DNA of 64,000 nt from Thermoplasmata archaeon (GTDB lineage: Archaea; Thermoplasmatota; Thermoplasmata; Lutacidiplasmatales; UBA184), in the NCBI GenBank assembly GCA_021828195.1, contig JAKASQ010000002.1, forward strand, positions 91,920 through 155,919. Direction: 5' to 3'. The translations under genes were made by a program, and so were the position numbers. Positions 127-60,102 of the stretch are shown piece after piece. The notes under the pieces are model-generated. The model saw nothing but the letters and a program-made list of their open reading frames with translations. It was not told where the DNA came from and ran no database searches. Position 1 is the stretch's first letter. Every line of letters starts with the position of its first letter.

Positions 127-1271
127 GCGCGTCGCTTCACCTTTCCTAGGAAGTGGTCGAAGACGAACCCGGCCTCTTGGGGCCCGGGGTGGCCCTCGGG
201 GTGGCCCTGGAGCGCGAAGGCATTTCCGCGGGGATCCCGCAGCCCTTCGAGGGTCCCATCGTCCGGGTTCATCCCCCACGCCCGCAGTCCGCTCGGCTTG
301 AACGACTTCGGATCGACGGCGTAGCCGTGATTCTCACTGACGATGAGCGCGCGTCCATCGGGGAAGACGATCGTCTTGTTCTGGCCCCGATGGCCGAACT
401 TCATCTTGTAGGTGCTCGCGCCCCGGGCGAGCGCGATCAGTTGTAGGCCGAGGCAGATGCCCAAGGTCGGCAGCGCACGCGTGGACGGCCGACGCAGCTC
501 CTCCACCGTTCGGGCGAGCTGTTCCGGGTCCCCCGGACCATTTCCGACGAGTAGCCCGGAGACGCGACGACCCTCGAAGCGCGCCGGCACTTCGTGATCG
601 TACGGCAGCCTCAGCACCGAGGTCCCACGCTCGACGAGGGCACGAAGGATGCTGGTCTTGATGCCACAATCGAGCACCGCGACGAGCGGGCCGCGGCCTC
701 CCCCGAGGATCTCCGGGGCTCGCGGGCTCACGGCGCCCATGTACTTCTCATCGGCATAGGAAGGAGCCTGCCCGATTTCACGGAGGAGCTCCTCCGAGCT
801 CGGACGGTCTTCCGGCGGGCCGACGTCGATGATCCCGCGCACGACGCCCTCCGTACGCAGATGCTCGGTGAGGCGGCGGGTATCGATGCCGCAGACCCCG
901 GGCACCCCTTCCTCCTCCAGCCACGATGGCAGCGTCCCGACGCTGTCCCAGTGGTGCGGGGCCGTGAGGCCCCGCGCGATCATCCCGCGCACTTGGATCG
1001 AGGAGGACTCGAAACCGACCGGGAGGCCGTTCGAATCCACCACCCCTCGTCGCGGGACGCCGTAGTTCCCGAGGAGCGGATAGGTGAAGGTGAGGATCTG
1101 CCCACGGAAGGACGGATCCGTGAGCGTCTCGGGGTATCCGACCATGCCGGTCGTGAATACCACCTCACCGACGCGGCGCGCTCGCGCACCGAAGCCGACG
1201 CCGTCGAAACGGCTTCCGTCCTCGAGAAATAGAGTCCCCCCCAGAGCGCTCTCCGGCTCCGCCGGCGGCAC
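123..1271 (-). CDS. carA: Carbamoyl-phosphate synthase small subunit
   Basis: C-terminal half of ORF 123..2525: [56 protein letters not shown] start at 1271 is inferred. The upstream part of the ORF is a shadow of the opposite-strand gene. Confidence 0.93.
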
Positions 1272-5527: not shown

Positions 5528-6295
5528 CTACCCGGGAGTGGCCGACGCGACGCGGGGTCGGGGCTCGGAGGGCGGGCTCGCGATTTGGAGCTGTCGCGAG
5601 AGCTCGGTGAGGTCGGTGGCGATCGCGGAGGCGCCGGCGGCTAGGAAGCGGTCGGTCGACATGGTCGACGACTCGGACGGATCGGGAAGAACGGCGTAGA
5701 AGCGCACGCCCGCGCGCGTCGCGCACTCCGCATCGATCAGATGGTCTCCGACGTAGAGCGCGCGCTCGACCGGGACCCCCATCTCCGAGAGGAGGTAGAG
5801 GAGGGCCTCAGGGGAGGGTTTCGCGGGACCCGGCGCGTTGCGCGTCCGCATGAAGGAGAAGTACCGGTCGAGGTGGGTTCGGCCGAGGGCTTCGCGGGTG
5901 AACGGCTCCGAGCTGCGGGTCAACAGGCCCAGCCGGAATCCGCGTCCGTGGAGTCCCCGAAGGAGTGCCGGGGCCCCCGCACGGACCGTCGTCCGGTCGA
6001 GCGCCTGCATCTCGATCCCGTCGATCAGTTTGTGAAACTCGGCCTCGAACCGGAGGATGACGGTAGTCGGGGTCTCGGAAGAACGCAGTTCGTCGCGGGC
6101 GCTCTCCAAGATGCGATGGAGCGGCTCCTCCGGGCTCAATCGGCCGGGGGTGACCCCGTAGCGCTCGGCGAGCCGGATCACCTCGTGGCGCATCCGTCCG
6201 AAATCGTGACGCGACACCACGAGGGTGCCATCGAGGTCGAAGACGACCCCGAGAACGGGTTCGATGAACCGGGGCTCCGGGACGCGCGTGGGCAT
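5528..6295 (-). CDS. HAD-superfamily hydrolase (phosphoglycolate phosphatase-like)
   Basis: VFDLDGTLV, AKPSPEAL, YVGDHLID. Confidence 0.88.
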   Translation of the reverse strand: MPTRVPEPRFIEPVLGVVFDLDGTLVVSRHDFGRMRHEVIRLAERYGVTPGRLSPEEPLHRILESARDELRSSETPTTVILRFEAEFHKLIDGIEMQALDRTTVRAGAPALLRGLHGRGFRLGLLTRSSEPFTREALGRTHLDRYFSFMRTRNAPGPAKPSPEALLYLLSEMGVPVERALYVGDHLIDAECATRAGVRFYAVLPDPSESSTMSTDRFLAAGASAIATDLTELSRQLQIASPPSEPRPRVASATPG

Positions 6296-26170: not shown

Positions 26171-27574
26171 ATGCGCGTCCTGGTGGTCGGGGGCGGAGCC
26201 CGGGAGCACGCGATCGCCCGCACCCTATCCATTGCCGGGGCCGAGCTCGTCAACATCGCTCCCCACACGAACCCGGGGATCGCCCGACTCGCCCGCGTTA
26301 CCGCCCGCTCGGAGATCACGGATGCCGATACGGTAGTGGCATGCGCCGAGCGCCAGGAGATCGATTACGCGGTGATCGGCCCCGAGGCCGCGCTCGCCGC
26401 CGGGGTCGCGGACGCGTTGCGCGCCGCGGAGATTTCCGTCGTGGGGCCCTCCGCCTCGGGGGCCCGGATCGAGTCGTCGAAGTTGTTCTGCCGCGAGCTC
26501 CTCGCCCGCAACGGGGTCGGAGGCCAGCCGCGGTTCGAAGCCCCTCAGAGCCTCGACGAGATCGACGCCCTGGCGCAGCACTTCGGGGCCCCGTTCGTGA
26601 TCAAACCGAGCGGACTCACCGCCGGCAAGGGGGTCTGGGTCCAAGGGTCGGACTTCGTGCAGGTCAAGGAGGGCGCGGCCTACGCGAAGAGCCTCCTCGT
26701 GCAGGGCCAGCGGGTCCTCTTCGAGGAGAAGCTCGTCGGCGAGGAGTTCAGCCTCATGGCGTTCGTTACCGACTCCGGCATCTATCCGATGCCCGCCGTG
26801 CAGGACTTCAAGCGCGCCCTGGAAGGAGACAAGGGTGGCAACACCGGAGGGATGGGAGCCTACTCCCAACGCGACCACCTCCTACCGTTCCTCCCGGCCG
26901 CCGACCGCGACGCCGCCGTCGAGATCATCCGGCAGAGCGTTGCGGCGCTTCGCACGGAAGGGATCGAGTACCGAGGGATCCTCTACGGTGGGTTCATGCT
27001 CACGGCGCAGGGCCCGAAGCTGGTGGAGTTCAACGCTCGCTTCGGCGACCCGGAATCGATCAACGTCCTCTCGCTGTACGAGGAGGGGAACTTCGACGAG
27101 CTCATGTTCGGGGTCGCGAGCGGCCGCGTCGACCCCAACCTGGTGCGATTCCGCTTGCGGTCGACCGTCCTGAAGTACATCGTGCCCCCCGGGTACGGGG
27201 ACAAACCCCGAGCCGGTGGGATCGTGCGACTGGACGAGCCCGCGATCGAGGCGGAGGGAGTCCACGTGTACTTCGGGAGCGTGGAGGAGGTCGGCCCTTC
27301 GACCGTTCAGCTCGGTTCGGGACGGGGCATCGCGCTGGTCGGGGAGGCGAGCGCGATCCACGAAGCCGGAGCCCGGGTCGAGACCGCCCTCGCGCACGTC
27401 CAGGGCGAGTTCTACGTGCGCCACGACATCGGGACCAACGAGGACCTCGCGCGCCGACGCGAGCACATGCGCCAGATCCTCGCCCCGGGCGCGAAGCCGT
27501 CGCCCCTTCCCTTGAGCGTAGCTCCGGCCGCGGCTCCCGCTTCGAGCGCGGCGTCGCCGGACCGGTTCCCGTAG
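26171..27574 (+). CDS. purD: Phosphoribosylamine--glycine ligase
   Basis: VLVVGGGAREHA, IGPEAAL, LTAGKGV, QDFKRA, NTGGMGAYS, EFNARFGDPE. A TATAAC lies about 30 nt upstream. Confidence 0.95.
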   Translation: MRVLVVGGGAREHAIARTLSIAGAELVNIAPHTNPGIARLARVTARSEITDADTVVACAERQEIDYAVIGPEAALAAGVADALRAAEISVVGPSASGARIESSKLFCRELLARNGVGGQPRFEAPQSLDEIDALAQHFGAPFVIKPSGLTAGKGVWVQGSDFVQVKEGAAYAKSLLVQGQRVLFEEKLVGEEFSLMAFVTDSGIYPMPAVQDFKRALEGDKGGNTGGMGAYSQRDHLLPFLPAADRDAAVEIIRQSVAALRTEGIEYRGILYGGFMLTAQGPKLVEFNARFGDPESINVLSLYEEGNFDELMFGVASGRVDPNLVRFRLRSTVLKYIVPPGYGDKPRAGGIVRLDEPAIEAEGVHVYFGSVEEVGPSTVQLGSGRGIALVGEASAIHEAGARVETALAHVQGEFYVRHDIGTNEDLARRREHMRQILAPGAKPSPLPLSVAPAAAPASSAASPDRFP

Positions 27575-27627
27575 TTTCCCCGCGCGCGAAGGGTCAAATA
27601 CGGCCGGCTCCCTCGAATCGTCTCCCT

Positions 27628-27936
27628 ATGTTTTGTCCCAAGTGCAAGCGCTTGATGCGCCCGGACACCGCGGCCCACCGCTGGGTCTGCCCGGCGTGCG
27701 GAGCCACCGTCCCCCTTGGCTCGGGCAAAGAGGTGGGCCGCTCGACCCCGAAGGAGCGCGAGGTCTCGGTCGTGGAGACGAAGTCGGTGACGCTGCCGAC
27801 GACGAACGAGGTCTGCCCCAAGTGCGGCAACGACACCGCCTACTGGGTGCTCCGCCAAACCCGGGGAGCGGACGAGCCGGAGACCCGGATCTTCGAGTGC
27901 ACCGCGTGCGGCCACAAGTGGCGGGAGTATCAATGA
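27628..27936 (+). CDS. tfs: Transcription elongation/cleavage factor TFS (RpoM family)
   Basis: MFCPKCKRLM; C-terminal ribbon CPKCG...QTRGADEPETRIFECTACGHKWRE with the acidic DE hairpin. Confidence 0.93.
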   Translation: MFCPKCKRLMRPDTAAHRWVCPACGATVPLGSGKEVGRSTPKEREVSVVETKSVTLPTTNEVCPKCGNDTAYWVLRQTRGADEPETRIFECTACGHKWREYQ

Positions 27937-29237
27937 GCCCCACCGCGTTCTCCGCGATCGAGCATGCCTTCCGTCCGGAGGCGATCGGCGCCCCGATCGC
28001 CGTGCGAGGTTGGGTGCTCCGATCGCGATCCTCCGGCGGAATCCTGTTCATCACGCTTCGCGACCGGACCGGCGTCGTGCAGGTCACCGGACGCAAGGAT
28101 GCGCTCGGAGAGGTGCCGTTCACCGCCGCCGAGCATGTCCAGAACGAGGGAGCCATCGCCGTCGAGGGCACCGTCGCGGAGGACCGGCGAGCACTCGGAG
28201 GGCGGGAGATCCGCGCATCGCGGATCGTCGTGCTCGACGCCGGAGAGCCGTACCCAATCTTCCAAGAGCAGACCGAGGAGTTCCGGCTCGACAAGCGGCA
28301 CCTGGTCATCCGCTCGCAGGACCACGTCGCCACGTTCCGCGTGAAAGCCGAGCTCTTGAGAGCGTTCCGCGAGTTCATGGACCGCGAGGCGGTCCTCGAA
28401 GTGACGCCGCCGATCTTGAGCGGCAACGCCGCCGAAGGCGGCGCCGAGGCGTTCGAGATCGATTACTTCGGACGACCCGGATATCTCTCCCAGACCGCCC
28501 AGCTCTACCTCGAGGCGCTCCTCGTGCCCAACGAGCGTGTCTACGCGCTCACCCCGTCGTTCCGGGCCGAGAAGATGCGCACGCCGCGGCACCTGACCGA
28601 GTATCTCCACCTCGAGGGCGAGCTCGCATGGACGGATCTCGACGGACTGCTCTCGTTCATCGAACGGATGATCGAGTACGTCTGTCGCGCGATCGCCGAG
28701 CGACGACCGACCGAGCTTCGGCAGCTCGGACGGGCGCCGGAGGACCTCGCCGCCCTCCGCGCACCGTTCGAGCGGGTCCCGTACGCCGCTGCGATCGAGG
28801 AGCTGCAGAAGCAGGGATTCGCGATCGAGTGGGGCGGGGACTTCGGCACGGCCGAGGAGCGAGCGCTCACGATCGCGAGGACCGCGCCGATCTTCCTGAC
28901 CCGGTTCCCGCGCGAGCTCAAGGCGTTCTACATGCTGCGCACCCCCGGCGACCCGCGCACGGTGGAAGCCGCGGACCTACTCGCTCCCGAGGGTTACGGG
29001 GAGATCGTGGGCGCCTCCTGCCGCGAGACGAGCATCCCGAACCTGCTCGAGCGCCTCGCCCAGCTCGGCATCGATCCGGCCGCCTACGAGTGGTATCTCG
29101 ACCTGCGACGCCATGGAAACATCGAACACGCGGGCTTCGGCCTCGGCGTCGAGCGCGTGCTGCGCTGGCTGCTGCGTCGAGAGCACATCCGCGACACGAC
29201 GCCGTTTCCGCGGACACCCAGCCGGCACACTCCGTAG
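27933..29237 (+). CDS. asnS: Asparagine--tRNA ligase
   Basis: OB-fold RGWV, YLSQTAQLYLE, FRAE, APEGYGEIVG, WYLDLRRHG, GFGLGVER. ATGA overlap with tfs. Confidence 0.85.
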   Translation: MSPTAFSAIEHAFRPEAIGAPIAVRGWVLRSRSSGGILFITLRDRTGVVQVTGRKDALGEVPFTAAEHVQNEGAIAVEGTVAEDRRALGGREIRASRIVVLDAGEPYPIFQEQTEEFRLDKRHLVIRSQDHVATFRVKAELLRAFREFMDREAVLEVTPPILSGNAAEGGAEAFEIDYFGRPGYLSQTAQLYLEALLVPNERVYALTPSFRAEKMRTPRHLTEYLHLEGELAWTDLDGLLSFIERMIEYVCRAIAERRPTELRQLGRAPEDLAALRAPFERVPYAAAIEELQKQGFAIEWGGDFGTAEERALTIARTAPIFLTRFPRELKAFYMLRTPGDPRTVEAADLLAPEGYGEIVGASCRETSIPNLLERLAQLGIDPAAYEWYLDLRRHGNIEHAGFGLGVERVLRWLLRREHIRDTTPFPRTPSRHTP

Positions 29238-57812: not shown

Positions 57813-58208
57813 ATGCCGGCATCCAAGCCGACGCCGCCGTCGGAAGTGCCCGAACCGGCTCCATCCGCGGACGGAGCCTCCCTCGGGGAGCGGATCGCGT
57901 CGGAGCTGGAACTCCTCGCGCGGAACGTCGATGTGCTCCAGCGCCTCTCGGGAAAGTCCCCGATCGGGATCATCCGGCTGAGCGAGGCGCTCAACTTGCC
58001 GATCCACAAGGTCCGGTACTCGCTTCACCTGCTGGAGCGGGAGGGGGTCGTCCAACCGTCGGCCGACGGAGCGGTGGTCACCGACCAAACCGTGCAGTAC
58101 TGGGAGTCGCTCCACACCTCGCTGGACCGGATGACGACGCTCATCCAGCAGTTGAAGGAGCAGACGGACAAGCAGCGGGCACTCGGCTCGAGTCGGAAAG
58201 GCTATTAG
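57813..58208 (+). CDS. Winged-helix transcriptional regulator-like protein
   Basis: PIGIIRLSEALNLPIHKVRYSLHLLEREGVVQPSADGA. Confidence 0.8.
   Translation: MPASKPTPPSEVPEPAPSADGASLGERIASELELLARNVDVLQRLSGKSPIGIIRLSEALNLPIHKVRYSLHLLEREGVVQPSADGAVVTDQTVQYWESLHTSLDRMTTLIQQLKEQTDKQRALGSSRKGY
58196..58208 (+). promoter_or_regulatory. BRE/TATA-like promoter for tRNA-Asn/tRNA-Ile2
   Basis: GAAAGGCTATTAG about 30 nt upstream of tRNA-Asn. Confidence 0.5.
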
Positions 58209-58234
58209 CGCGATTCAAGCTCGTCCGCCTCGGT

Positions 58235-58338
58235 GCCGCCGTAGCTCAGTGGTAGAGCGATCGGCTGTTAACCGAAAGGTCAGCGGTTCGAAAGGTGGGC
58301 CCGACGTTCGAGCCCATCCCAAATCCCGCTCGGCGGCG
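58235..58338 (+). tRNA. tRNA-Asn (GTT) with a 32-nt intron at 59/60 (58293..58324)
   Basis: GCCGCCG...TCGG CTGTTAA CCGA...AGCGG TTCGAA [intron] C CCGCT CGGCGGC G. The intron folds with the T-arm into a relaxed bulge-helix-bulge. Confidence 0.9.
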
Positions 58339-58357
58339 CCTCACCTGCGCGTTCCCT

Positions 58358-58433
58358 GGGCCCGTAGCTTAGCCCGGCCGAGAGCGGCCGGCTCATAACC
58401 GGTTGATCGACGGTTCGAATCCGTCCGGGCCCA
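58358..58433 (+). tRNA. tRNA with CAT anticodon, most likely tRNA-Ile2 (alternatively elongator Met)
   Basis: GGGCCCG...GCCGG CTCATAA CCGGT...GACGG TTCGAAT CCGTC CGGGCCC A. The G1-C72 / GGGCCC acceptor is typical of archaeal Ile2 and excludes initiator Met. Confidence 0.88.
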
Positions 58434-58717
58434 TCCCCATCCGGGCTTGAACACACCGGTGAGCCCCCGAGTCCTGTGAAGCGCGGTAGGCGCGCCACCG
58501 GCCCTCGGTTGCTGCCCGGGTCGGCGGACACGGACCTCCAGCGCGGGTCGCGATCTCGGTTGGCACCGAGTGCCCAAGGGCCGATGGAATGGACGGATCG
58601 GGGCCAGAGTTCCGTGAGGTCCGTGGTCGAACGGGCCCCCACGGTACACCCCCAGGCAGTTGGCCTGCGGAGAGTCCGAGGACCGGGGAATCGGCCGACC
58701 GATCCCCCTCTCCCCTC

Positions 58718-59662
58718 TCACCCTCCATCGGAGATGGGGGCACCCGGGGGCTCTCGCACTTCGTGGTAGGTCTTCCACAAGCTGTAGCCACCGACCACGC
58801 CGACGACTACGACGATGATGACCGTGGAGTAGCCGATGGAGTTGAGGTTCGGGACCGGGTTCCCGGTCGAGATCGCGACCTGGCTGAGCCACGGAGCGGC
58901 GGCAACCACCGCACCAACGGCCATGAAGGCGAGACCTCCCACATACAAGGTCCGGGCCGCGGTCGAACGCCCGATCCGCTTGATCTGGCCCGGGGAGAGC
59001 TTCTTGCTTCGGGCTAGTTGTGCGAAGACGGCTCCCGTGACGATCTGCATCACCATGGTCCCGAGCCCGAAGCAGGTGCCCACCAGTGCCGCCCAACCGA
59101 CGTTGGGCATCTCGGGAGCGAGAACGAAGACGATGATGACCGCGAATCCACCGAAGCCCCACCCGGCAATGAATCCGTGCACGATCGCCATCCGAAGGGG
59201 TATCGGCTCTAGTTCCTCCTTCGGTGGCGGCGACTCCCTCTCGGCGACCGTGGTGTGGTGAGTGTGATCTCGGAAGAACCCTCCGAAGAGCCGCTCCCCC
59301 CAGTGATCGAGCGGGAGGTGGATGTCGGTACCCCGCAACAGATACCATCCGGCAATGAACATCGCGAGACCGACCATGATGTAGATCGGCCCGTCCAGGT
59401 TGTAGACTTGGTAGATCGTGGCCAGCCCGAGGAATCCCAGCGCCGTGAGAATGGTCCTCTGGATGGTGAACCCCGAGGAGAACGTGAGGCCCGCCTTCAT
59501 GCCGCCCCGCGTGCCGTAACTGCCGATGGAGTAGCTGAACGTGATCGGCCAGGTGTGCTCGTCGGGGGTGATGCCGTGCAGGACGCCGAGGATAAAGCCG
59601 ACGGCCAGGATCGTGGGGATCGTCAGGTTCGCGGGCGGGTTCAGGATGAAGTTCAGATCCAT
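58718..59662 (-). CDS. NicO/HoxN/UreH-like His-containing metal transporter
   Basis: TM1 GVLHGITPDEH, His-rich loop DHTHHTT, AIVHGFIAG, FGLGTMVM; 6-7 TMs. Confidence 0.65.
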   Translation of the reverse strand: MDLNFILNPPANLTIPTILAVGFILGVLHGITPDEHTWPITFSYSIGSYGTRGGMKAGLTFSSGFTIQRTILTALGFLGLATIYQVYNLDGPIYIMVGLAMFIAGWYLLRGTDIHLPLDHWGERLFGGFFRDHTHHTTVAERESPPPKEELEPIPLRMAIVHGFIAGWGFGGFAVIIVFVLAPEMPNVGWAALVGTCFGLGTMVMQIVTGAVFAQLARSKKLSPGQIKRIGRSTAARTLYVGGLAFMAVGAVVAAAPWLSQVAISTGNPVPNLNSIGYSTVIIVVVVGVVGGYSLWKTYHEVREPPGAPISDGG

Positions 59663-59670
59663 GACGGGAC

Positions 59671-60102
59671 CTACGGGCGCGAGTTAGCACTCCCACACGG
59701 TGGGATGGGGTCGCCGTGGGGGCAGAGGGCTGGGTGGCCTTCGGCCCGGCAGATGCGCTCGACCGTCCGGTGGTCCAGCGCCAGGTCGATTTGCCGGGCC
59801 GCGCGACACGTCTCTTGGGATGAGAATCCCAACCCCGCGAAGAGCTGCTCCGCGACTCGGTGATGCCGTTGGTAGTCCGCGATGCACGCACGGCCCCGTG
59901 ACGTGAGCCGGGTCTTCCCGCGATGCCGCTCCACCAACCCGAGCCGTTCGAGGGCGGTGAGGTGGCCGAGGGCCGACGGGGGCCGTACCCGCAGGGTGGC
60001 CGAGATGGCCTTCAGCGGGGCGCCGCGGCCCGGACTCTCGCTGAGGACCACGGCTCGAAGGGCATCGATCTGGCGACGGGTGAGGCGCTCGAGGGTCTCC
60101 AT
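59671..60102 (-). CDS. DtxR/MntR-family metal-dependent transcriptional regulator
   Basis: ISATLRVRPPSA, LTSRG, HHRVAEQLF, IDLAL, CPHGDPIP. Confidence 0.88.
   Translation of the reverse strand: METLERLTRRQIDALRAVVLSESPGRGAPLKAISATLRVRPPSALGHLTALERLGLVERHRGKTRLTSRGRACIADYQRHHRVAEQLFAGLGFSSQETCRAARQIDLALDHRTVERICRAEGHPALCPHGDPIPPCGSANSRP

Follow-up and report, generated by a model that had tools for sequence, protein, structure and literature searches.

A bulge-helix-bulge intron at position 59/60 of tRNA-Asn in a GC-rich clade of Thermoplasmata

The 64,000-nucleotide stretch of contig JAKASQ010000002.1 analyzed here (assembly GCA_021828195.1 of a Thermoplasmata archaeon, positions 91,920 to 155,919 of the forward strand), called the window in the following, contains on its plus strand, at 58235..58338, a tRNA-Asn(GTT) gene with a 32-nt insert in the T-loop, at 59/60. 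The anatomy of the gene and the comparison with its relatives support the conclusion that this tRNA-Asn carries a 32-nt bulge-helix-bulge (BHB) intron at 59/60. Very probably, the gene is functional and the intron goes back to a single gain in the clade's ancestor, has been inherited vertically, and is constrained in its shape only.

The unspliced gene is 104 nt long and reads GCCGCCG-TA-GCTC-AGTGGTA-GAGC-G-ATCGG-CTGTTAA-CCGAA-AGGTC-AGCGG-TTCGAA[AGGTGGGCCCGACGTTCGAGCCCATCCCAAAT]C-CCGCT-CGGCGGC-G, and removal of 58293..58324 leaves a 72-nt tRNA. When the unspliced form was analyzed with ARAGORN, with or without the -i option, no tRNA was reported, and the match to the Rfam tRNA model was restricted to 58235..58288 (37.4 bits). 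Once 58293..58324 had been removed, the T-loop consisted of 7 nt (TTCGAAC) and ARAGORN called a 72-nt tRNA-Asn(gtt), so that, as is characteristic for BHB introns, the cloverleaf is recognized solely after excision. The failure of both tools on the unspliced gene is a limit of the tools and no evidence against the gene. A preliminary description of this DNA, made from the letters alone, had proposed a 32-nt intron at 59/60 with the T-stem as outer helix, a TTCG/CCAA central helix, two bulges, an inner helix, and a restored 7-nt T-loop after excision; every coordinate proved exact, and its structural reading as a tRNA-Asn with a BHB intron is backed by the anatomy as well as by strong comparative evidence. 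A self-splicing group I tRNA intron of the kind known from bacteria and organelles, which would be longer than 200 nt and located in the anticodon loop, is ruled out by the length of the insert, by its position in the T-loop, and by the lack of any Rfam intron match in the window at E ≤ 1.

A genome collection was scanned, using one genome per species, with a pattern that demanded the anticodon arm of tRNA-Asn together with a T-loop not closed immediately. Among the matches listed, at least 83 loci in metagenome-assembled genomes (MAGs) of Thermoplasmata had an insert exactly at 59/60, and these provided at least 77 further distinct sequences beside that of the window, giving the set of 78 sequences that was used for all comparisons described below. 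The closest genome record among the matches listed is that of an 'uncultured Thermoplasmata archaeon' MAG (L115, CAWISZ010000005.1), the pre-tRNA of which is identical to that of the window, and Ca. Lutacidiplasma silvani AcS3-62 (L076, JAKIVZ01) also carries the intron-bearing tRNA-Asn. Inserts are 28-38 nt long (32 nt in 46 of the 78) and have a median pairwise identity of 50 %, in comparison to 97 % for the nearly invariant exons. In the MAFFT alignment (A1), all length variation falls in the apical loop and the exon columns are almost all invariant. Neither decayed exons nor a lost promoter nor a patchy distribution, as would characterize a pseudogene, was found.

Scoring this alignment for the tRNA-plus-BHB structure showed that 90.9 % of cells were paired, as opposed to 36-44 % when the partners were slid by 1-3 columns. 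Changes on both sides of a pair were found in 198 cells versus 63.5 ± 5.9 in shuffles, and the observed covariation score was reached by none of 500 shuffles; the strong recurrence, the degree of pairing and the outcome of the shuffles place the architecture far beyond chance. In the inner helix, compensatory changes occurred at 9 of 10 pairs, one of them being G-C in 18 sequences, C-G in 13, A-U in 10, and U-A in 9, and the register of this helix is unique, with 85 % pairing, whereas no shift exceeds 53 % and shuffled hairpins reach 44 %. RNAalifold independently recovered the inner helix and, beside the cloverleaf, the T-stem. In the T-stem, all cells are paired (100 %) and one pair covaries, and both flanking helices (h and h′) are present. 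If a slash denotes the predicted cut, the 5' bulge is AA/N in all 78 sequences and the 3' bulge A-N/Y in 77 of them, and the 3-4-3 spacing, that is two 3-nt bulges and a center of four positions, is exact in the window and in 78 of 78 sequences. With both 3-nt bulges and both flanking helices present and conserved, the insert does not correspond to a relaxed hBH, HBh′, or BHL motif, in which a bulge or a flanking helix is missing and by which the broad-specificity (αβ)2 and ε2 EndA enzymes are defined. As judged from the alignment, the insert is constrained in shape and not in sequence.

Positions 54, 55, 56, and 57 of the central helix are paired in 99, 90, 58, and 81 % of the sequences, respectively. 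T54 and T55 are nearly always opposite A or G, C56 is opposite G in 58 % and opposite C in 29 of the 78 sequences, the window among them, and at position 57 a covariation between G-C and A-U was seen in 5. Four central pairs are possible in 30 sequences, three in 39, and two in 9, which means that the central helix is imperfect in 48 of 78, including the window with its C56·C. The strict hBHBh′ motif demands standard or G·U pairs at all four central positions, and the window has them at three. The full 3-4-3 BHB is the minimum-energy fold of 17 sequences, namely of relatives with a perfect central helix, and in the window the three possible central pairs cost +4.3 kcal/mol compared to an open internal loop. 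Across the alignment, the spacing and the two flanking helices are thus kept strictly and the central pairing is loose, and the mismatched central helix suggests some tolerance.

Conserved neighbors made it possible to compare the history of the intron with that of its surroundings. The gene upstream of the intron-bearing tRNA-Asn adjoins it in at least 81 loci, where its products are 59-69 % identical to the window copy (91 % in L115), and among the intron-bearing relatives these upstream proteins are 46-99 % identical. Divergence of the intron and divergence of the upstream protein are correlated with a Spearman rho of 0.22, a value that none of 999 permutations reached; intron divergence therefore tracks that of the host protein, which fits vertical inheritance. 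A tRNA-Met gene follows tRNA-Asn in 74 of 78 cases, 38 of them with a 19-nt spacer. Scanning 241 million metagenome records with the joined exons gave one match, L121. Here the upstream gene is the same, though only 45 % identical, the exons differ in sequence, no tRNA-Met adjoins, and the insert is missing; L121 is therefore a diverged intron-less syntenic outgroup and not an allele. Several diverged versions of the locus occur in four DNA metagenomes, in which no contig was found that skips 58293..58324 and joins 58292 to 58325. The preliminary description had called for a look for another tRNA-Asn gene, and it turned out that an intron-less gene with these exons was found neither in the four DNA metagenomes nor in the metagenome collection, which gave the diverged L121 only. 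These comparisons indicate that the intron is old and fixed in the clade. The alternative offered in the preliminary description, a recent acquisition, is refuted by the occurrence of the insert in at least 78 distinct sequences with flanking proteins of such low identity to that of the window, and is also countered by the parallel divergence of intron and host and by the outgroup position of the sole intron-less match.

Table 1. Coordinates in the window of the intron-bearing tRNA-Asn gene, its parts, and associated features.
Feature	Position	Strand	Remarks
Acceptor stem GCCGCCG/CGGCGGC	58235-41 / 58331-37	+	
Exon 1	58235..58292	+	acceptor 5' strand, D-arm, anticodon arm, variable loop, T-stem 5' strand, T-loop 54-59 (TTCGAA)
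Anticodon GTT	58267-58269	+	
Outer helix, T-stem AGCGG/CCGCT	58282-58286 / 58326-58330	+	
Central helix TTCG/CCAA	58287-58290 / 58319-58322	+	U-A, U-A, C·C, G-C; 5' strand is T54 T55 C56 G57
CCAA, 3' strand of central helix	58319-58322		last paired portion of intron
5' bulge A58 A59 / A	58291..58293	+	predicted 5' cut 58292/58293
Intron, 32 nt, AGGTGGGCCCGACGTTCGAGCCCATCCCAAAT	58293..58324	+	
Inner hairpin	58294..58318	+	helix GGUGGGC/GCCCAUC at 58294-58300 / 58312-58318, 7 bp with one G·U
3' bulge A U / C60	58323..58325	+	predicted 3' cut 58324/58325
Exon 2	58325..58338	+	T-loop nt 60, T-stem 3' strand, acceptor 3' strand, discriminator G
Discriminator G	58338	+	
5' leader GGT	58232..58234	+	conservation 97-100 % among the 78 relatives; pairing with G73-C-C at the 3' end possible
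Promoter-like element CGGAAAGGCTATTAG	58194..58208	+	-41..-27; purine run like a B recognition element (BRE) and TATA-like box centered near -30
Upstream gene, 131 aa, synteny anchor	57813..58208	+	weak winged-helix (DeoR/CggR N-terminal-like) matches
tRNA-Met(CAT), intron-less	58358..58433	+	19 nt downstream; Rfam 65.2 bits
Open frame with asparaginyl-tRNA synthetase	27522..29237	+	homology over residues 145-569

In the pathway proposed here, transcription would start from the BRE/TATA-like promoter about 30 nt upstream and would probably include the downstream tRNA-Met. Within the precursor, the T-stem as outer helix and the GC-rich hairpin of the insert as inner helix would hold two 7-nt strands face to face, and these strands could form a 4-bp central helix between two staggered 3-nt bulges. 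We infer that the tRNA splicing endonuclease EndA, of a type discussed below, would cut after A59 (58292/58293) and before C60 (58324/58325) and that an RtcB-type ligase would join the exons to yield the 7-nt T-loop UUCGAAC.

The predicted junction in the window is ...GGTTCGAA/CCCGCT..., the junction word of the window strain being GGTCAGCGGTTCGAA/CCCGCTCGGCGGCG and that predicted for the relative L029 being ...CGCGGTTCAAA/TCCGCGCGGCGGCG. The window strain itself is absent from the metatranscriptomes of the same mine-drainage study, in which relatives are present. In L029, the tRNA-Asn gene extends from 1086 to 981 on the minus strand with exon 1 at 1086..1028. One RNA contig covers 820..1084 of this locus, starts 2 nt inside the 5' end of the tRNA, and comprises the entire unspliced precursor together with about 160 nt downstream, the region that holds its tRNA-Met. 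Another contig (run X30, depth 26) contains about 390 nt of upstream sequence and exon 1 and stops precisely where exon 1 ends, at 1028; this end is only suggestive of either a point where spliced and unspliced reads diverge or a product of the endonuclease. In run X31, a contig of depth 88 from an L071-like strain begins far upstream and runs into the intron, and the X30 and X31 contigs indicate that read-through transcripts from the upstream gene reach the tRNA. For L071 itself, a comparison of the metatranscriptomes with the locus gave no match.

Searches for EndA were started from verified sequences. A profile search returned mostly α4 enzymes, and a Methanomassiliicoccales query followed by a GC-rich query reached a family of about 350 residues, named 'tRNA-intron lyase [Thermoplasmata archaeon]' by NCBI, that has two endonuclease units and the amino-acid bias of a GC-rich genome. 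Its member P0235 aligns end to end with the α′2 EndA from Archaeoglobus fulgidus and with the fused EndA from Methanopyrus kandleri. The catalytic unit of P0235 is as long as the α subunit from Methanocaldococcus jannaschii (161 versus 163 residues aligned), whereas in this span the loop-bearing α from Aeropyrum pernix has 9 additional residues. Tyr, His, and Lys motifs, which we take to be equivalent to the catalytic residues of M. jannaschii EndA, are present in the C-terminal unit only. This two-unit EndA is tied to the window genome by taxon label, composition, and habitat only, and the enzyme of the clade would most likely be of the ordinary two-unit α′2 form. Broad specificity is known to go along with the 'specific loop' of (αβ)2 and ε2 enzymes (PMC3239211, PMC5829648). 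That the lineage has a broad-specificity EndA, as the preliminary description had also considered, was not shown: the enzymes encoded by GC-rich Thermoplasmata MAGs are ordinary ~350-aa proteins of the α′2 type, and an insert that keeps both bulges and both flanking helices is not a relaxed hBH/HBh′ substrate. The subunit type, which it had proposed to determine, appears to be the two-unit α′2 type in the GC-rich Thermoplasmata MAGs, and no copy was assigned to the window genome or to an intron-bearing MAG. On present evidence, an ordinary α′2 enzyme with tolerance for an imperfect central helix is more likely than a broad-specificity EndA.

Several points weigh against a functional and spliced tRNA-Asn gene. 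No spliced junction was found in the assembled RNA contigs, from which assemblers normally drop short dead-end branches, and the host sequence analyzed was the 64-kb window, outside which a second, intron-less tRNA-Asn may lie. When the verified M. jannaschii EndA was used as a tblastn query, no EndA was found in the window or in the 83 Thermoplasmata loci, and of nine look-ups of EndA contigs (WNEY, JABAOD, JABAOH, JBHIFI, DATEGJ, JBHIDH, JAZGBJ, Logan runs) none led to an intron-bearing MAG. The central pairs of the window, with their C·C mismatch, have a predicted probability below 1 % in free RNA, and α4 and α′2 enzymes are described as requiring a strict 3-4-3 hBHBh′ motif (PMC3239211, PMC5829648). 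The missing spliced RNA and the view limited to the window, together with a gene that ARAGORN misses and of which Rfam sees the 5' part only, would be expected if the insertion had broken the T-loop and left a disabled pseudogene that is never spliced, with an intact copy elsewhere. Such a pseudogene is very unlikely, as its exons would not be under the strong purifying selection seen across 78 diverged species, its insert helix would not be kept by compensatory changes in a fixed register, and its promoter-like element and synteny would not be conserved; in addition, no intron-less gene with these exons was encountered in the metagenomes, and the 97 %-complete genome of strain AcS3-62, which has the intron-bearing gene, is reported to contain tRNAs for all 20 amino acids (PMC9287336). 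Archaeal integrative elements are known to target the portion of tRNA genes from the anticodon to the T-arm (PMC4090602), and the insert might then be the remnant or target duplication of an integrated mobile element, with its attachment site in the 3' part of tRNA-Asn, and not a spliced intron. This origin is hardly conceivable and is effectively refuted by the anatomy, since the insert of 28-38 nt contains no repeat of tRNA sequence, occupies one exact position in all species, is structure-constrained, and is flanked by no integrase or element genes, the tRNA-Met following within 19 nt.

A different explanation accepts the intron and supposes that the clade needs, and has, a broadened endonuclease, either through a new determinant in the two-unit EndA or in the form of a second, (αβ)2- or ε2-like enzyme. 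It would account for the central mismatches in 48 of the 78 sequences, for the fact that only 17 fold by themselves into the 3-4-3 BHB, and for an intron away from 37/38 in spite of the strictness that reviews attribute to α4 and α′2 enzymes and of their statement that euryarchaeal introns occur solely at this canonical position (PMC4090602, PMC3239211, PMC5829648), and a broad-specificity ε2 enzyme exists in other mine-drainage archaea (PMC3239211). On the other hand, all EndA homologs recovered from GC-rich Thermoplasmata MAGs are about 350 aa long and α′2-like, with a catalytic unit of the length of M. jannaschii α, and neither a bulge nor a flanking helix is missing from the intron motif, unlike in hBH or HBh′ substrates. 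Also counting against it, α′2 enzymes do not depend on the mature tRNA domain for their action on BHB motifs, as is known from work with Haloferax volcanii and A. fulgidus. A broadened enzyme is therefore considered rather unlikely. With regard to the functional gene favored here, it is tentatively proposed as one possibility that the clade fixed a 59/60 intron with a central helix mismatched in most species and has no EndA other than an ordinary α′2 enzyme lacking the 'specific loop'. If this were true, the strict rule for α4 and α′2 enzymes (a perfect 3-4-3 motif, at 37/38 only) would be incomplete, and either flanking helices and spacing would suffice for α′2 enzymes in vivo or the enzyme of the clade would possess an unrecognized specificity determinant.

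Position 59/60 is an established site of BHB introns, found in tRNA-Cys and tRNA-Pro of ARMAN-2 and in Thermoproteales, and cleavage of ARMAN-2 59/60 introns by EndA has been obtained in vitro (PMC3239211). The window intron resembles these ARMAN-2 introns in its site in the T-loop, the use of the T-stem as outer helix, the shortness of the insert (13 nt in tRNA-Cys), and the restoration of a 7-nt T-loop. The 59/60 intron of ARMAN-2 tRNA-Pro is of the strict hBHBh′ type (PMC3239211), and that in ARMAN-2 tRNA-Cys lacks one bulge (hBH), whereas the window keeps both bulges with a mismatched central helix. Unlike in ARMAN-2, the host belongs to the Thermoplasmata and not to DPANN or TACK archaea, and one tRNA, that for Asn, is affected throughout the clade instead of being one of many disrupted tRNAs. 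With the euryarchaeal introns at 37/38, such as those in tRNA-Trp and elongator tRNA-Met of H. volcanii, which are cut by an α′2 EndA, the window intron shares the 3-4-3 geometry and cuts after the second bulge nucleotide, and a two-unit α′2 enzyme is the probable enzyme class in both cases. It differs from them by its site in the T-loop and by a center that is built from the invariant T54 T55 C56 R57, so that only the intron side can adapt, and in many species the intron side fails to pair with C56. We take this arrangement to be the canonical register moved to the T-arm, in which 53 corresponds to 31, 54-57 to 32-35, 58/59 to 36/37, and 60 to 38. Its handedness is that of an archaeal BHB motif, as in 5'→3' direction either strand presents a helix, then the 4 central nucleotides, then the 3-nt bulge, and then a helix again.

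Inserts at 59/60 of tRNA-Asn were also found in the scan in Aenigmatarchaeota (L089, 15 nt), Bathyarchaeia (L094, 20 nt), and an Asgard archaeon (L118) as well as in L035 (57 nt) and L106 (32 nt). These inserts from other phyla have the same bulges AA/N ... A-N/T and unrelated sequences and lengths, their hosts belong to phyla known or expected to have a loop-bearing EndA of broad specificity, and they are likely to be independent insertions at a hot spot. No description of a 59/60 intron in tRNA-Asn of Thermoplasmata was found in the literature searched, which does not prove that there is none; the word 'intron' does not occur in the paper on Lutacidiplasmatales genomes (PMC9287336), and Thermoplasmata introns are not mentioned in the papers on tRNAscan-SE 2.0 and on the EndA survey. 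What is new is the lineage and the pattern, consisting of a single tRNA, fixation throughout a deep Thermoplasmata clade, and a graded quality of the central helix, whereas the kind of intron was already known. The at least 78 natural versions of one intron, with central helices from perfect to doubly mismatched, constitute, in a class regarded as having a 'strict' α′2 endonuclease, a substrate series with which the pairing needs of α′2 enzymes can be studied, and an old, vertically inherited intron with an intron-less syntenic outgroup is well suited for determining when a tRNA intron was gained outside TACK and DPANN archaea. Because ARAGORN finds nothing and Rfam a 5' fragment only, genomes of this abundant clade of acid soil and mine drainage can appear to be devoid of tRNA-Asn when annotated with generic finders, unless an intron-aware archaeal mode is used.

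The host is a GC-rich member of the Thermoplasmata from a Lutacidiplasmatales-like clade of acid soil, peat, and mine drainage. The window has a G+C content of 67.8 % and encodes as archaeal markers homologs of ArcS (archaeosine synthase), the Hef nuclease, and an archaeal GdhA, and the locus was found in metagenomes from mine drainage, sediment, and soil. Lutacidiplasmatales have been described as acid-soil Thermoplasmatota with about 69 % GC (PMC9287336). The open frame for asparaginyl-tRNA synthetase matched the NCBIfam asnS models NF003037 (E = 7e-120, 401.0 bits with a cut-off of 414) and TIGR00457 (349.7 bits with a cut-off of 342.6), and its presence in the window implies that tRNA-Asn is charged directly and is needed. 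The promoter-like element CGGAAAGGCTATTAG shows a column identity of 85-100 % at -41..-27 across the 78 relatives and is the sole A/T-rich block of a region with 68 % GC. The final codons of the upstream 131-aa open reading frame (ORF), R-K-G-Y-stop, overlap with this element, which imposes on them AAA and TAT, rare codons ending in A or T, in spite of a GC content of over 80 % at third positions in the genome. From its position and composition, we infer that CGGAAAGGCTATTAG is the archaeal BRE/TATA promoter of the tRNA-Asn/tRNA-Met pair, and the two tRNAs are probably co-transcribed. The promoter-like element, the conserved upstream gene, the tRNA-Met, and the synthetase argue for a working gene.

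Some further details of the locus may be mentioned. Beyond its 7-bp helix, the inner hairpin continues with a C·A mismatch, a C-G pair, and a G-C pair before the apical loop. CCA is not encoded, the discriminator G being followed by CCT (58338-58341). In 64 of the 78 sequences CCT is found after the discriminator, so that C74 and C75 are encoded and A76 is not, and the leader GGT together with the 3' trailer could add three pairs to the acceptor stem in the precursor. Five tRNAs are present in the window, four of them intact. The minus-strand ORFs 58280..58642 and 58341..59891, which run over the tRNA, gave no family matches and are spurious, as is usual for such frames in GC-rich DNA.

In the scan for relatives, a permissive parser reported a 46-nt insert at 59/60 in a tRNA-Met of L063, which upon inspection was an ordinary contiguous tRNA-Met and hence a false positive, and long 'introns' of hundreds of nt obtained in the loci with ARAGORN -i were artefacts of the assumption of circular topology. 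An apparent 8-nt T-loop, TTCGAAGT, occurs in bacterial tRNA-Asn of L003, L020, L021, L031, L032, L036, L040, L045, L051, and others; the hosts are MAGs of Alphaproteobacteria and Chloroflexia, nearly all of them long-read assemblies, and the additional nucleotide could be a homopolymer error or a real variant. With regard to EndA neighborhoods, the two-unit EndA gene in L122-L133 is always placed divergently beside a gene for a protein of about 310 aa with PDDEXK_19 and HTH_3 domains, and it is often located upstream of a DUF1028/PG_binding_2 gene. In an uncultured archaeon that does not belong to the Thermoplasmata (L073:5400-6300), some 360 nt separate a tRNA-Asn-like piece from an α-type EndA gene downstream of it (5809-6285). 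Possibly lying next to its own processing enzyme, the piece consists of the anticodon arm and the 5' strand of the T-stem followed by unrelated sequence and may represent a split tRNA or a tRNA with a long intron.

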